Source of the DNA: a bacterium
Lineage (GTDB): Bacteria; DRYD01
Reading direction: 5' to 3'
Length of the DNA stretch: 34,587 nucleotides
Assembly (NCBI GenBank): GCA_046294045.1
Contig: JBKBIY010000001.1
Span: 1-34,587 of the forward strand
Position 1 is the stretch's first letter. Each line of letters begins with the position of its first letter. A program made the translations under genes and the position numbers. Below are positions 17,174-22,354 of the stretch, piece by piece. Under the pieces are notes generated by a model. It was given only the letters and a program-made list of their open reading frames with translations. It was not told where the DNA came from and did no database searches.

Positions 17174-17213
17174 TATCATTTTTTATTTTTCAATATCATT
17201 TTTTATTTTTCAA
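17174..17213. repeat. Perfect 20-nt tandem duplication (ATCATTTTTTATTTTTCAAT x2)
   Basis: Read from the sequence. It spans the stop codon of ORF 17203-18057 and part of the 53-nt spacer before the cyclase start. Coordinates may be off by 1, because my count and the ORF track disagree by 1 nt in this T-run. Confidence 0.75.
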
Positions 17214-18057
17214 TTTTGTAATAAACTGGATAATAACAAGCACCTAAAGGCTGAGTTAAAAAATCCTTTATAAATATTTCACTGCTAAAAATAACATTAT
17301 TATCATAAGGCTTAAATACACCACCACCTGTGTAAATAAAATCCCCCTGTTTACTGGAAATATAATAAATTGGTATAGATGGACCACCCCTAGCAGAAAA
17401 GCTAATACCTTTTACTTGCCTATTCAAAACAAAATGATAAAAAACCTTGTAAGTACCCTTTAAAAGCATATTTGTTTCTATCCCATCTAAAGGAATATCC
17501 CCTACTACCAAATAATCCAAATCATTAGGCAAATAAGTAACTATTCTACCCATACCAAATATGCCTTTAACATGCTTATTATCAAGCGGTAATATATACC
17601 TATAATTAACTTCACCGATCCAAGATTCAAAATCTATCCTAGTGTTTGAAAAAACCCAAAAATATCCAGAAATTAAATATTTAGAAGGAAAATTAACTTC
17701 AAAAACTTTTTCATCCTCAATATATAATTTTTGAGGATTAAAATTCTTAAAAATTTCCGCTCCTACTTCGTTACCAACCCTAAAATAATTATCACGCGAA
17801 GATGAAAAATAATAACTTATATAAGCTTCACTCTTACCACTAAACCTAATATATAACCTCTTATCTTCAAAAGTATCATTAAGATGATAAAAATATATCA
17901 AAGTTGGAGTAAATGGTGAAACGGTACCACTAATTAAATATCCATTACTCTTTACATACTCCGGAGAATTAGAAAAAAATAATAAAACAGGTTCAAAACT
18001 ATAACTCTTATAAACTAAAAAAATAAACAAAAACAACCACACAATTAATTTCCTCAT
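17203..18057 (-). CDS. Hypothetical secreted protein (signal peptide, beta-rich)
   Basis: 284 aa. Signal peptide MRKLIVWLFLFIFLVYKSYS, then an aromatic-rich sequence with alternating polarity and no further hydrophobic helices. The ATGA overlap places its start inside the holB stop. Confidence 0.6.
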   Translation of the reverse strand: MRKLIVWLFLFIFLVYKSYSFEPVLLFFSNSPEYVKSNGYLISGTVSPFTPTLIYFYHLNDTFEDKRLYIRFSGKSEAYISYYFSSSRDNYFRVGNEVGAEIFKNFNPQKLYIEDEKVFEVNFPSKYLISGYFWVFSNTRIDFESWIGEVNYRYILPLDNKHVKGIFGMGRIVTYLPNDLDYLVVGDIPLDGIETNMLLKGTYKVFYHFVLNRQVKGISFSARGGPSIPIYYISSKQGDFIYTGGGVFKPYDNNVIFSSEIFIKDFLTQPLGACYYPVYYKIEK

Positions 18058-19031
18058 ATGTCTCCTCCCAATAAAACGTATAAATTATATATCAAACTAA
18101 CATATAAAATTTTTTTGTTTACCCTCTTGTAAATATGAATGTTACCTATATTTATATCTTTTATAAAATTCAATAATTGATATAACTTATAATCCACTAT
18201 CCTAAAGCGCATAACCTTATTAAAAAATTCCTCTCTTCCGATAATTTTCAAGAAAATCAAGTTTTTTTCTAAATATTTAGCAAAATCCGGATCATATGTC
18301 TTATTAATAATTCCTAAATAATAGACATCCCTTAAAAAAGATTTTATAAGCAACATTAAAGCTCTATAAGAAATAAAAGAACCAAAGATCTTAACCCAAA
18401 AATCTTCTTCAAAAACTATTTCTATGCTAGGATTAAACAAAAAGTTTAACAATTTTTCAAATACTTTACCAGGTTTTTTCTCTTTTAAATTCCACAAGTT
18501 ATGATTAAAATAATCGATAATATCAAAATTTTGTTCCGAAAAATATACTACAAACTCTGCCCAATTCAAAGAATAACCACAAAACTTTATTAAATACTCT
18601 ACTAACTTGCCAATATCAACATTTACAAAAATTTTTATAGACCTTGATAAAATCGTGGGAATAACGTTAGTGTCAGACTTAAGTAAAATAAAAATACAAT
18701 TACTTGGTGGCTCTTCTAATGTTTTCAACATAGCATTTAAAGAATAAATATTTACATTATCAATGTCTATTACCACAATTCTTAAAGAATCCGAACTCAG
18801 TCTTACATAATTCAAAACATATTTCACCTTTTCCAATGGTATAATATCGTCATCTATTAGAAAAATATACTCTGCTTTATTTAATCCAATTTCTTGTATT
18901 AAGGAAATTTTTAGTTTCTTTGATTTCCCAAAAAGTAAAAACGTACCGCTTTTTATATTTTCAAGATAATTTTGAAATTTACTTTTTAATCCCTTTGACA
19001 AAAAAAAATCAACAGTTGTTTTTCTCTTCAA
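18054..19031 (-). CDS. holB: DNA polymerase III delta-prime subunit
   Basis: 325 aa with a TTG start. Clamp-loader box NAMLKTLEEPPSNCIFILL and sensor motif PTILSRS. The P-loop region is degenerate (LLFGKSKKLK), as expected for delta-prime. Confidence 0.8.
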   Translation of the reverse strand: MKRKTTVDFFLSKGLKSKFQNYLENIKSGTFLLFGKSKKLKISLIQEIGLNKAEYIFLIDDDIIPLEKVKYVLNYVRLSSDSLRIVVIDIDNVNIYSLNAMLKTLEEPPSNCIFILLKSDTNVIPTILSRSIKIFVNVDIGKLVEYLIKFCGYSLNWAEFVVYFSEQNFDIIDYFNHNLWNLKEKKPGKVFEKLLNFLFNPSIEIVFEEDFWVKIFGSFISYRALMLLIKSFLRDVYYLGIINKTYDPDFAKYLEKNLIFLKIIGREEFFNKVMRFRIVDYKLYQLLNFIKDINIGNIHIYKRVNKKILYVSLIYNLYVLLGGDI

Positions 19032-19086: not shown

Positions 19087-19956
19087 CTAAATACTTAACC
19101 TTCTTCTCAATATAAATTTGTCATAAATAAAAACGATATTTGCAATGATAATAAAGACTATAAGTAAAGTATGTATAAGTGATTGAGTAAGCATATATTT
19201 AACAGCTTCACTTACTTTATCTGGTTCGGGATTAGATTCCAATATTTCATAATCTGCTGCTCCCTTAAGACCACCAAACAAACCTATCAATTGACCACTT
19301 AAAATATAAGGATACATTTCAGCAGCCATAACAGCGGTACATCCACCTGAAACGTTAACACCATACCTACTTTTAAGTATTCTAATATAATACACCAAAG
19401 TATCCCCAGAAGCTATACAAAATACTAATTTCAAATCATTAGCTGTTCTTACGTTTTCTAAGAAAGGAGCTTTACTATCAGATATTAAAGGAATTGCATC
19501 TTTTAAATCTACTCCCATTTTTTCTATAGCTACCGCTGCCCCAACAACATAACCACCAATTACATAATCTATATTCTCAACTTTCCCATATTCTTGAGCG
19601 ATTTTACGAGTTTTTGTAGCAACTATCTGAGCACCATCCGGCCAAAGAGAAATCGCTATAACCTTTAAATCCTTCCTAAAAGACTGTCTTAAAAAATTCT
19701 CCAAAATCGGATCCGCTTCAACCCTCGTAGAAGGACCATAATCCCCAGATACCAAAACCACACCACCACTAGGAATAGATTCTATAAAATCATAAGCTTG
19801 CTTAGAAGCAGGTGTTATCGTCTTTCTTAATATCTCCAAATTCAGCTTTTTAACCCAGTAAACATCTGAAAAAATTATCCCCATAGATAAAAACATAGCT
19901 ACAAATAAAAATATCGTTCTTCTTGTTATTTTTTTAAATAACTGAATTATAATCAT
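19087..19956 (-). CDS. Uncharacterised bitopic membrane protein (gene C of the three-gene module)
   Basis: 289 aa. N- and C-terminal TM helices flank a domain of about 230 aa (GGVVLVSGDYGPS, KVIAISLWPDG, DYVIGGYVVGAAV, LVFCIASGD, VNVSGGCTAVMAAEMYPYILSGQLIGLFGGLKGAADYE). ATGA overlap with gene B. Confidence 0.6.
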   Translation of the reverse strand: MIIIQLFKKITRRTIFLFVAMFLSMGIIFSDVYWVKKLNLEILRKTITPASKQAYDFIESIPSGGVVLVSGDYGPSTRVEADPILENFLRQSFRKDLKVIAISLWPDGAQIVATKTRKIAQEYGKVENIDYVIGGYVVGAAVAIEKMGVDLKDAIPLISDSKAPFLENVRTANDLKLVFCIASGDTLVYYIRILKSRYGVNVSGGCTAVMAAEMYPYILSGQLIGLFGGLKGAADYEILESNPEPDKVSEAVKYMLTQSLIHTLLIVFIIIANIVFIYDKFILRRRLSI

Positions 19957-20678
19957 TCCGCTTTACCTATATGAGATTTTTCTATTCCAAATAATAATTT
20001 GAAAGATATTATAATTGTACCTATTCCTATAGCTATTAGGATAGCTCTCTGTGCAGCAGCATTTATTACTGCTGTAATATAATCCGAAATTATAGATATT
20101 TTTAAACCAAATATTCCAAAAATATAATCCCCAATAGGTACCCTTCCAAGAATTACTATTGCAGCAGCAATTAACAATAAAGTAGCTTCCAAATTTCTTG
20201 CCCTAAAAGCTCTATATGAGGCAGAAGCAATGAAAAACGCTAACAAAGAAAACATAGCTGCACTCAAGGGATTATATATGCTATAAAATATAACCCTCGT
20301 GAAAATATTACTATCCACAGATTTAAATTCAAAGTTAATCAGTGGCAAAACCATAGATTTATCTAGACTAAAAACTAAAAAATTATCTGTCTTAGGACTA
20401 ACACCATAAAATAAACCTATAGCAGCCGTAATAATAAGAGAAATAATGAGAATAACGTTTGCCACTCTATCATCAAGCGAAGTGATAGGTTCCACAACTT
20501 TTCTTAAACTAACTATTAACAAATTCAAAATACCAAGAATTATAGCGAATGAAGAAATAATTATAACCCAATTTCTTACCACCTGGGTTACTTTACCCGT
20601 AACTTCAGGTAAGAAATAGTTCACAATAATTATTATACCAGTTAAAGCAGTTATAAAAAGTGGTAATTCTCTTTTCAT
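19953..20678 (-). CDS. Uncharacterised polytopic membrane protein (gene B of the three-gene module)
   Basis: 241 aa with about six hydrophobic helices and no sizeable soluble domain. ATGA overlaps at both ends. Confidence 0.6.
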   Translation of the reverse strand: MKRELPLFITALTGIIIIVNYFLPEVTGKVTQVVRNWVIIISSFAIILGILNLLIVSLRKVVEPITSLDDRVANVILIISLIITAAIGLFYGVSPKTDNFLVFSLDKSMVLPLINFEFKSVDSNIFTRVIFYSIYNPLSAAMFSLLAFFIASASYRAFRARNLEATLLLIAAAIVILGRVPIGDYIFGIFGLKISIISDYITAVINAAAQRAILIAIGIGTIIISFKLLFGIEKSHIGKAE

Positions 20679-21532
20679 TTTATCACCATTCCACTAAATA
20701 TTTTATAAATAACATTTATCAAAGGTATTTTTGATACCTTTACAAAAATTTCTCCTATACTAATTAATGATCCCGTAGCGATAGAAAGCATAACAAGAGC
20801 TTTGGAAACATCCTGAGTTCTTAAAGTTATTTTATCAAGTAGATCTTTAGAAAGATAAGCGGAGGCGGCAAATAATTCCTCTCCTATTAAAACATAATCA
20901 CAAGCTGCAATAAAGAAAGGTAATTGAGTTATCATAGCTGTACCTGCTATTTGGATAGCTCCAGCAGCAAAACCTGTCTCAGCAAGTATCAAGGACTCCG
21001 CGTAAAAAGCCCCTATTAAGAAAATAGCTCCCGGTTTTTCCCTTGCTATTATCCCATCAACACCTGCAGCATAACCAAATTGGTCATCCGTTAAATAAAA
21101 AACACTATCACTTCTATAAAGATCACTCCTTCCCGCTCTAAGATAAGATTCTTTTACTACCTCTTGTGCAACAGTCATCAAAACCGATCTACTAACAGGC
21201 ATAATTAAATCTGTTTCATATTCTGCACATCTTTGTGCTACATACCCTAATATGGCTAACGAAGCTAAAGTTTGAATATTGTCAATATCCTGTATACCCG
21301 GAATATAAAGAATAGGTTTTCCCATTTCAGTAGATCTACCAATAGCTTCCTCTATAGAATTTAAAGCAGGTATTTTTCTTATATATACACTCTTTAATTT
21401 GCCTTTTTTTACTAAATACAAATAATACCAAAAAACAAAAGATATAAAAATTAAAAAGAATAGAGCATATCCTAATAAAACGTTCTCTTTATAAGGCACA
21501 ATTACCTTATACCAAAAATAACCCCAATCCAT
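20675..21532 (-). CDS. Uncharacterised membrane protein (gene A of the three-gene module)
   Basis: 285 aa. An N-terminal TM helix is followed by an alpha/beta-like region (GKPILYIPG, DLIMPVS, DDQFGYAAG, GAIFLIGAFYAES) and Gly/Ala-rich hydrophobic C-terminal segments. No family recognised. Confidence 0.6.
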   Translation of the reverse strand: MDWGYFWYKVIVPYKENVLLGYALFFLIFISFVFWYYLYLVKKGKLKSVYIRKIPALNSIEEAIGRSTEMGKPILYIPGIQDIDNIQTLASLAILGYVAQRCAEYETDLIMPVSRSVLMTVAQEVVKESYLRAGRSDLYRSDSVFYLTDDQFGYAAGVDGIIAREKPGAIFLIGAFYAESLILAETGFAAGAIQIAGTAMITQLPFFIAACDYVLIGEELFAASAYLSKDLLDKITLRTQDVSKALVMLSIATGSLISIGEIFVKVSKIPLINVIYKIFSGMVIK

Positions 21533-21595: not shown

Positions 21596-22270
21596 TTAAT
21601 CAATCAGAAAGGAAGGATCCAATTTCATTACCTCATGGTTATAAAAAGGTTCTGCGTATTGAGTTCTAGCAAGTAATCCCCAGTAACGAGCAATAGATTT
21701 AATATAATCTTCAACATCCCTAGAAACAAATTGACTTTCATAAGCCCTACAAGCCTCTATTTTTTTATCAATAAAATCACTAATATCCACCACAAACGAC
21801 GGAGTTATATTAATCCTTAGGTGATTAGAAAAAAATCTAATAATTTTGCGCGGATACCAACTTTCTCCTTCTAATGATATCTTAGTTAATTTAGCATAAA
21901 ACCTTGCAGCATAAGAAACATTAAAAGCCTGCCAATGATCAGGATGAGCATCTAATTCATAATGACAAAAAATCACCTCAGGTTTATACTTCCTTATAAC
22001 ATTTGCCACTTTAAACCTACTTTCAATACTATCAAAAAGGAATCTGTTTTTAAGATCAAGAGTTATTCTTTCAACAATTCCAAGTATTTCTGCGGCTTTT
22101 TTTGATTCTTTTATTCTTTTTTCAACTGTTCCATGAGGTGTAGGCTCTCCGTTAGTAAGATCCAAAATCATAACTTTATATCCTTTGTTAACTAGGTAGG
22201 CAATGGTGCCGCCCATAGCTATTTCGCAATCATCTGGGTGAGCTCCGATACACAAGAAATCAATTTTCAT
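21596..22270 (-). CDS. PIG-L/LmbE-family N-acetylglucosaminyl deacetylase (BshB-like)
   Basis: 224 aa from MKIDFLCIGAHPDDCEIAMGG (AHPDD motif), plus HPDH. I trimmed the track ORF (to 22327) because its first 19 codons read through the tRNA-Arg gene. Confidence 0.85.
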   Translation of the reverse strand: MKIDFLCIGAHPDDCEIAMGGTIAYLVNKGYKVMILDLTNGEPTPHGTVEKRIKESKKAAEILGIVERITLDLKNRFLFDSIESRFKVANVIRKYKPEVIFCHYELDAHPDHWQAFNVSYAARFYAKLTKISLEGESWYPRKIIRFFSNHLRINITPSFVVDISDFIDKKIEACRAYESQFVSRDVEDYIKSIARYWGLLARTQYAEPFYNHEVMKLDPSFLID

Positions 22271-22279
22271 ATTAAAAAT

Positions 22280-22354
22280 CGCGCCCGGCAGGACTCGAAC
22301 CTGCGACCCTGGGATTAGAAATCCCATGCTCTGATCCTACTGAGCTACGGGCGC
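22280..22354 (-). tRNA. tRNA-Arg (anticodon UCU)
   Basis: The reverse complement folds by hand into a cloverleaf: GCGCCCG/TA/GCTC-AGTAGGATCA-GAGC/A/TGGGA-TTTCTAA-TCCCA/GGGTC/GCAGG-TTCGAGT-CCTGC/CGGGCGC + G. CCA is not encoded. Confidence 0.9.

Follow-up and report, generated by a model that had tools for sequence, protein, structure and literature searches.

In a 34,587-nucleotide stretch of bacterial DNA (contig JBKBIY010000001.1 of assembly GCA_046294045.1, positions 1 to 34,587; hereafter the window), three adjacent minus-strand genes, called A, B and C here, form a translationally coupled, strictly co-inherited, chromosomal membrane module without detectable relation to characterised systems. 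We infer that the three proteins form one complex, and the module is probably a new kind of cell-envelope machine. A sequence-only reading of the window had singled out these open reading frames (ORFs) as a joint unit, and its coordinates and lengths (285, 241 and 289 amino acids, aa) proved exact; both ATGA start/stop overlaps which it had reported can be read directly in the sequence. The layout is as follows:

20675..21532, minus strand: gene A, ORF of 285 aa, assigned to Pfam DUF6754 by profile match; predicted order N-out, transmembrane (TM) helix, cytoplasmic alpha/beta domain, TM helix, C-out
19953..20678, minus strand: gene B, ORF of 241 aa without a family; about six TM helices by hydropathy, predicted N-in and C-in
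19087..19956, minus strand: gene C, ORF of 289 aa without a family; TM helix, predicted periplasmic Rossmann-like domain, TM helix
20675..20678, minus strand: ATGA overlap of the A stop and the B start, in 'aaaATGAaaag'
19953..19956, minus strand: ATGA overlap of the B stop and the C start, in 'ggaATGAtta'

To describe the spread of the module, we scanned one genome per GTDB species for relatives of A and examined the best 80 loci in detail. A relative of A is encoded in at least 585 of these species-representative genomes. The 80 best loci, nearly all labelled as metagenome-assembled genomes (MAGs), come from Calescibacterota, Cloacimonadota, Fermentibacterota (including Aegiribacteria and Sabulitectum), WOR-3/Stahlbacteria, Armatimonadota and Vulcanimicrobiota/Xenobia, and further from Zixibacteria, Latescibacterota, Ignavibacteria and Riflebacteria. 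We built hidden Markov models of A, B and C and searched them in the six-frame ORFs of the loci. Every A gene with at least 1.7 kilobases (kb) of downstream sequence (79 of 79) is followed by B and then C on the same strand, so the triad co-occurs in all testable cases across about ten phyla and is conserved as the translationally coupled unit which had been proposed. The gap between A and B has a median of 9 nucleotides, and B overlaps C in 49 of 69 loci.

Homologues of A, B and C are numerous, with at least 7985 for A and more than 4667 for B, and the closest ones listed belong to Candidatus Calescibacterium and hot-spring MAGs. When A was searched by phmmer against 1.84 billion cluster representatives (clusters at 50% identity), 2030, 1479 and 749 clusters were matched at E <= 1e-3, 1e-10 and 1e-30, respectively. 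Two or three complete A-B-C(-D) modules, D being a fourth gene described below, stand in tandem in Zixibacteria and Ignavibacteria (L001, L002, L058, L059, L073, L076, L079). In these arrays, the third A is sometimes much larger (550-750 aa). No natural fusion of A with B, C or D was found among 447 proteins.

The module lies among housekeeping genes and shows no mobile-element signs, as had been supposed: it is chromosomal, its GC content (0.31; window range 0.24-0.34) is ordinary, and tblastn of A gave no match in 72,556 plasmid or 50,697 phage records. There is no terminator-like site within A-B-C, and the single such site in the scanned region is the T-arm of a tRNA.

Fourth gene and facultative partners

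The earlier picture of a triad holds for the A-B-C core, but the usual form is A-B-C-D plus lineage-specific cytoplasmic NTPase partners. Gene D encodes a protein of about 216 aa with 4-5 TM helices and without a family. Of the 62 modules with enough room, 49 contain D. Where D occurs (57 loci), it comes immediately after C in 55, and the two genes overlap in 32 of 49 loci. D is found neither in the window nor in the rest of the Calescibacterium clade, where a holB-like gene comes after C.

One partner is a cassette that encodes a GlmL/MutL-like ASKHA ATPase of about 620 aa (PF13941) together with X9, of about 150 aa, and U1, of about 375 aa and without a family match; U1 and X9 are uncharacterised families themselves. 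The cassette adjoins the module in 24-25 of 83 loci, which belong to Fermentibacteria, Latescibacterota, Ignavibacteria, Zixibacteria, Riflebacteria and unclassified MAGs. The linkage outlasts rearrangement, because the cassette may lie upstream, downstream or divergently. In the cassette loci (L009, L044, L054, L057, L061, L064, L070, L075 and others), X9 is a small protein with two TM helices, and U1 has no relative in the PDB.

Other partners were seen in certain lineages. The Cloacimonadota have a MobB-like P-loop gene that overlaps D at its end or directly adjoins it, and next comes a small gene of the APH/choline-kinase-like type. In Fermentibacteria, a TonB-dependent receptor gene and an exbB-exbD-exbD-tonB block come after A-B-C-D. 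The same block is found in WOR-3, where a PATAN (DUF4388) gene and four unknown genes stand between it and D. These four genes are conserved in L046, L063 and L065, with product lengths of about 215, 200-220, 116-123 and 116-124 aa, and have no significant family match. GGDEF genes lie near the module in Calescibacterota and Cloacimonadota.

Genes of ABC ATPases occur upstream of A in some phyla and were considered as a missing engine. This was rejected, since they are no constant partner and belong to three different complete systems, namely LolD/MacB with an FtsX-like permease, OppDF with OppA, and ECF CbiO/CbiQ. The last type is found in the Cloacimonadota locus L043, where a molybdenum/tungsten cofactor (Moco) riboswitch (RF01055, 63 bits, L043:231-356) heads a same-strand array of five small genes, two ECF CbiO ATPases, a BtuB-like TonB-dependent receptor and CbiQ, which ends in A-B-C-D. 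Related loci carry MobB-like and FdhD genes downstream of the module. Uptake of a cofactor (Mo/W or B12) was rejected, since neither the riboswitch nor the ECF genes recur in other Cloacimonadota loci and a search of 25 other loci found no riboswitch.

Relatives and anatomy of the three proteins

The sequence-only reading had found no recognisable family for any of the three proteins. This stands for B and C, which have no match in Pfam, NCBIfam or PDB, but not for A. A matches Pfam DUF6754 (PF20539) with 339.5 bits (E = 1.3e-101; gathering score 27 bits) over residues 25-261 and 235 of 257 profile positions, and by this profile match it is a member of DUF6754, a family of no known function. 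The DUF6754 entry covers A alone, leaving the partners B, C and D and the operon outside its description. In the Pfam and NCBIfam scans at E <= 1, DUF6754 was the single family matched by A, and neither B nor C had a match. No relative with a solved structure was found in the PDB by single sequence or by profile for A, B, C, U1 or the MutL-like protein; a profile search gave a weak FN3-like match for the ectodomain of the A family (E = 0.048).

Models of TRAP, TTT, RND, MFS and Sec systems (DctP/Q/M, TctA/B/C, ACR_tran, MFS_1, SecY/SecD/SecF) match none of A, B and C, and the same scan detects an MFS protein elsewhere in the window. MotA_ExbB and ExbD domains are absent from the three proteins and were both detected by the same tool in neighbouring genes at L057 and L061. 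ABC_tran (at E <= 1), ABC2_membrane and ABC_transp_aux were not found in A, B or C with Pfam and NCBIfam. A regular-expression scan found no Walker A, ABC signature or GxGxxG motif in A, B or C. Besides, neither A nor C has a nucleotide-binding loop of the GxxxxGK[ST] or GxGxxG/A type (P-loop or dinucleotide enzymes), and a Walker-A-like string occurs in just 1 of 121 A-family sequences. The judgement that the layout is unlike ABC, TRAP, TTT, RND and Sec systems is thus upheld, as Pfam, NCBIfam and the sequences and folds of the PDB point to no characterised transporter, motor or enzyme family.

Several borderline matches were discarded. TMD0_ABC is reached by the B homologue P0074 with 27.6 bits (cut-off 27). 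In all, 2 of 120 listed B homologues carry it, and the B of the window has no such match at E <= 1. Together with 7TMR-DISM, it was judged noise and is probably a compositional match. The same verdict was given to TorT for C (E = 0.2) and to CrcB for D (19 bits against a cut-off of 143), and the small 'c1s' proteins which cluster with C by BLAST are an artefact of TM composition. A search of one paper library gave nothing on DUF6754, PF20539 or PF13941. B, C, D and U1 have no model among the Pfam and NCBIfam models searched, no paper or structure was found, and on present evidence the system belongs to no known kind.

For the anatomy of the proteins, TM helices were called by a Kyte-Doolittle window of 19 residues with a threshold of 1.6, and orientations were set by the positive-inside rule. 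The parts of A are the following:

21413..21481, minus strand: N-terminal TM helix of A, residues 18-40, by hydropathy; the K/R-rich stretch KKGKLKSVYIRK follows and marks the cytoplasmic side
20801..21406, minus strand: predicted cytoplasmic alpha/beta domain of A, residues 43-244, from the invariant columns of alignment A1 and the AlphaFold2 (AF2) secondary structure
20849..21022, minus strand: near-invariant block of A, residues 171-228, FLIGAFYAESLILAETG..GAIQIAGTAM..QLPFF.AACDY.LIGEELFAASAYLS (in a second rendering, FYAESLILAETG..GAIQIAGTAM..QLPFF.AACDY.LIGEELFAASAYLS)
20741..20800, minus strand: C-terminal TM helix of A, residues 245-264, by hydropathy

The N-terminal TM helix of A and the alpha/beta region behind it had been noticed before, but the C-terminal helix had been overlooked. 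A is the slowest-evolving part of the module, sharing 52-60% identity with homologues of other phyla. Its Gly/Ala-rich block reaches a maximum of 1.56 in the 19-residue window, just under the TM threshold, and the hydrophobic stretch 171-228 is probably a buried core or an interface with B. Most phyla add, ahead of the first helix, a signal peptide and then an ectodomain of about 100 aa with the motif DxPNDxG..W; other homologues have FN3 repeats or BamB/PQQ-like beta-propellers there, which reach up to about 1000 aa, and the A of the window has no ectodomain. The ectodomain, the K/R-rich stretch after the first helix and the soluble beta-rich tails of about 150 aa that two homologues (P0318 and P0368) carry beyond the C-terminal helix lead to the predicted order N-out, TM, cytoplasmic domain, TM, C-out.

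The AF2 monomer model of A is poor, with a predicted local distance difference test (pLDDT) of 62 and values below 50 across residues 153-217, where the invariant E179 falls. In this model, the invariant polar residues D82 and D84 come after strand 1 (74-76), S116 after strand 2 (109-113) and T148-D149-D150 after strand 3 (144-146), positions which would match the ligand-binding sites of Rossmann-type domains. HAD-like or other acidic-cluster phosphoesterases of Rossmann type are marked by DxDx[TV] after strand 1, S/T after strand 2, a K/R, and DD or GDxxxD after strand 4, on a HAD fold that has a squiggle and flap. A, in this poor model, has D82-I-D84, S116 and T148-D149-D150 after successive strands, with no DxDx[TV] and no HAD match in Pfam. 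Foldseek against the PDB gave just generic Rossmann-like matches for A.

The features of B and C are as follows:

20130..20270, minus strand: most conserved segment of B, residues 137-183, PLS..MFS.LAFF.ASASYRAFRARN.EA...GRVP.GD, from the invariant columns of alignment A3
19852..19920, minus strand: first TM helix (TM1) of C, residues 13-35, by hydropathy and alignment; the invariant R12-R13 lie on the cytoplasmic side
19204..19851, minus strand: predicted extracytoplasmic alpha/beta/alpha domain of C, residues 36-251, by AF2 and alignment; six beta-strands
19117..19182, minus strand: second TM helix (TM2) of C, residues 259-280, by hydropathy and alignment; the basic tail RRR follows

B had been described as a compact protein of about six TM helices, and hydropathy gives about six spans. 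Its identity between phyla is about 42-48%. The segment 137-183 is made of TM4, a basic cytoplasmic loop (ASASYRAFRARN.EA) and TM5 with GRVP, which suggests a candidate docking site for the cytoplasmic domain of A. The periplasmic loop between TM3 and TM4 varies from 7 to about 110 residues across homologues.

C carries TM anchors at both ends of a domain of 216 aa, in line with the first description, and is about 31-38% identical between phyla. Its domain is predicted to face the periplasm, because the invariant R12-R13 precede TM1 and a basic tail follows TM2. AF2 models the domain with confidence (pLDDT 95.5; predicted template-modelling score, pTM, 0.90) as a six-stranded alpha/beta/alpha sandwich. 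Conserved motifs follow strand 1 (D-Y-x-P-x4-E-x2-P), strand 5 (TAV.AP..YP) and strand 6 (SGQLIG..GG.KGAAEYE), and invariant or near-invariant polar residues (Q258, S259, H262 and N273) are found at TM2. Foldseek of C against the PDB gave generic Rossmann-like matches only, such as USP, LabA-like, LOG/Moco-carrier and GT-B halves, with query-normalised TM-scores <= 0.34 and E > 1e-3. These domains (LabA/NYN-like ones among them) are the best matches of C and weak matches of A, and the USP structure 5ahw is in the lists of both proteins. However, identity to these families is <= 16% and their motifs are absent, and the domain of C differs from them in being predicted periplasmic and tethered at both ends.

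It had also been proposed that A and C are distant paralogues with colinear motifs. We compared them by BLASTP and three hhalign set-ups, and the similarity was not above chance. BLASTP gave E = 0.59 in a non-colinear stretch, the family profiles gave an hhalign probability of 0.7%, and domain-trimmed profiles (121 and 114 sequences) gave about 1% in local mode and 0.07% in global mode. A third set-up gave 4%, with the match within TM segments. Paralogy of A and C was rejected on these grounds, and the alpha/beta domains of the two proteins are predicted on opposite sides of the membrane by the positive-inside rule. The first three beta-alpha units are similarly spaced in the two models, as expected for any two Rossmann-like domains of such size. 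Given the poor model of A (pLDDT 62), A and C may still share an ancient generic Rossmann-like fold. No paralogy of B and D or other relation between components was detected, all hhalign probabilities being below 5%.

Readings of the function

Tentatively, we favour a reading in which A, B and C make up the conserved core of an inner-membrane complex not characterised before, which would work as an envelope translocase or transducer and which in most phyla has D as a fourth subunit. A would contribute the common 'engine' or platform for docking, its cytoplasmic domain, which in some phyla would be served by a nucleotide-binding protein of the cytoplasm encoded next to the module. This protein would be the GlmL-like ASKHA ATPase, accompanied by U1 and X9, in some cases and a MobB-like GTPase in others. 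B, together with any D, is the polytopic membrane core and would provide the membrane path, and C and the ectodomain of A would handle a ligand or partner on the side of the periplasm and outer membrane. The Calescibacterium version in the window is the minimal form, in which A has no ectodomain and D is missing.

The graded conservation (A above B above C) suits a common engine with a more adaptable periplasmic part. This gradient, the interchangeable ectodomains, the tandem modules, the TonB, receptor, GGDEF and PATAN neighbours and the two types of nucleotide-binding partner point to, but do not prove, an envelope translocase or transducer rather than a metabolic enzyme. Tandem A-B-C(-D) copies resemble transport systems with diversified substrates. 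The module would also be like TonB-ExbB-ExbD and Tol-Pal, multi-subunit inner-membrane complexes which reach into the periplasm. It is placed directly upstream of exbB-exbD-exbD-tonB in Fermentibacteria and WOR-3, the receptor adjoins it in Fermentibacteria, and some A proteins bear a beta-propeller ectodomain. It differs from TonB/Tol in that A, B and C have no MotA_ExbB, ExbD or TonB_C match and no such neighbours exist in the window.

More speculatively, the module might be a trans-envelope machine of a new class, with no relation to the systems ABC, TonB/Tol, Sec, Lol, Lpt and Mla and with a core function in many mostly uncultivated diderm phyla (FCB-related candidate phyla, Calescibacterota, Armatimonadota and Vulcanimicrobiota). 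In such a machine, the near-invariant DUF6754 domain in the cytoplasm would be the engine, and interchangeable ASKHA-type or MobB-type NTPases coupled to this domain would drive transport or force transmission to the periplasm and the outer membrane.

Several observations weigh against a translocase or transducer. The AF2 model of A is unreliable exactly at the most conserved part, A has no recognisable motif for binding nucleoside triphosphates, and no component is similar in sequence or fold to a known transporter, stator or translocase. The module of the window has no adjacent NTPase partner, D or TonB genes, and is followed by the holB-like gene. Besides, the themes of the neighbouring genes vary by phylum and could partly reflect the general abundance of envelope genes.

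Another explanation, which we regard as unlikely, is a membrane-bound enzyme complex that modifies an envelope polymer or lipid. A would be a Mg2+-dependent phosphoryl or glycosyl transferase acting through D82-x-D84, S116 and T148-D149-D150, and B and D would bind or flip a lipid-linked substrate, with C acting on the product at the periplasmic side. Just after modelled beta-strands 1-3, the active-site location of Rossmann-type enzymes, A does have invariant acidic and polar residues, but no DxDx[TV], GxGxxG or Walker motif accompanies them. The identity of A between phyla (55-60%) is typical of catalytic cores, yet no glycosyltransferase, HAD or phosphatase family is matched at E <= 1. Half-domains of GT-B glycosyltransferases appear in the Foldseek lists of A and C with non-significant scores, among structural matches that are generic (query-normalised TM-score <= 0.34). 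The PIG-L deacetylase, WecG/TagA glycosyltransferase and Mur ligase near the module in the window would suit envelope synthesis, as would the APH/choline-kinase-like gene in the Cloacimonadota operon, but these window neighbours are not kept in other phyla.

An apparatus for surface adhesion or motility is improbable. Here the actin-like ASKHA ATPase would drive or organise an A-B-C-D anchor, the FN3 or propeller ectodomain would contact the cell surface, and c-di-GMP would regulate the whole. The GlmL/MutL-like protein is linked to the module in at least five phyla, but its cassette is absent from 58 of 83 loci and from the window, and the GlmL-family annotation denotes mutase accessory proteins, not filament formers. 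In favour are the GGDEF genes that adjoin the module in Calescibacterota and Cloacimonadota, and also the PATAN (DUF4388) gene immediately behind D in WOR-3; type IV pilus motors are a target of PATAN regulators (bioRxiv 10.1101/2021.06.11.447907). The FN3 repeats and beta-propellers of the ectodomains would fit contact with surfaces, whereas the Calescibacterium A keeps the conserved core without any ectodomain.

We give equally little credit to an exporter of the ABC-2 or GldFG type with an unconventional engine, an analogy in which B would be the six-TM permease, C a GldG-like auxiliary and A the replacement of the ATPase. In the GldA/GldF/GldG system, GldF is a six-TM ABC-2 permease and GldG consists of a TM helix, a periplasmic alpha/beta domain and a second TM helix. 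The likeness lies in the combination of a domain in the cytoplasm, a protein of about 240 aa with six TM helices and a periplasmic alpha/beta domain between two TM helices; B (241 aa) and C mirror GldF and GldG in size and topology, and the three-gene module would be made in fixed stoichiometry. However, the module has no ABC ATPase and no ABC-2 or GldG signal, and A is membrane-anchored at both ends. ABC_tran, ABC2_membrane and ABC_transp_aux matches are missing from A, B and C, as are Walker A and LSGGQ motifs. The TMD0_ABC score of P0074, which barely passes its cut-off (27.6 vs 27 bits), is probably compositional, the domain being missing from the B of the window and present in just 2 of 120 listed homologues. 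The ABC ATPase genes near A elsewhere belong to complete, unrelated ABC systems.

That three unrelated membrane proteins are adjacent without a joint function is very hard to believe, for although no natural fusion of components exists among the 447 proteins, the order A-B-C is kept in 79 of 79 testable cases in about ten phyla, the start/stop overlaps are conserved and the module is duplicated in tandem as a whole unit.

A unit kept in hundreds of species and about ten phyla, with an A so highly identical between phyla, implies selection comparable to that on core machines. If the module is a translocase or energy transducer, it would supply something missing from what is known of the envelopes of Cloacimonadota, Fermentibacterota, WOR-3, Zixibacteria and Calescibacterota, lineages which are known almost solely from metagenomes. 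One Pfam DUF and three protein families that no model covers would become parts of an annotated system, and the minimal thermophilic version of Calescibacterium, with its three small proteins and without an ectodomain, lends itself well to expression and cryo-electron microscopy.

Surroundings of the module

The other genes of the window are mostly housekeeping ones, such as Kup, PBP2/FtsI, MutS, M23 peptidase, FtsX, EF-Ts, YebC, CysS and Mur ligase. The window also encodes WecG/TagA, SSB, the MFS protein, a PIG-L deacetylase, two tRNAs, the holB-like gene and a GAF-GGDEF protein. Behind C (17203-19031), the Calescibacterium clade keeps a fixed series of three genes. The holB-like gene, for DNA polymerase III delta-prime, comes first and that of a GAF-GGDEF diguanylate cyclase last; the gene between them encodes a protein of 284 aa with an N-terminal hydrophobic signal-like segment and no family match. 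This series is common to the window, L003, L004, L005 and L084, and in L003, L004 and L005 the module may be co-transcribed with this replication gene, because the holB-like start overlaps the stop codon of C.

Three WOR-3 loci (L051:801-2020, L063:1-564 and L065:1599-1967) show fragmentary matches to 16S rRNA at a distance of a few kb upstream of the module. In L051, the match falls into two parts, perhaps because of an insertion or a fault in the assembly. In the window, roughly the first 16 codons of the ORF at 21596-22327, a PIG-L/BshB-like deacetylase, run into tRNA-Arg(TCT) at 22280-22354; translation probably begins at the second Met instead (MKIDFLC..., near 22270). All 1-kb bins of the window (1-34587) show negative GC skew (cumulative -8.7), and the minus strand carries almost all genes, which is consistent with a position of the entire contig on a single replichore.

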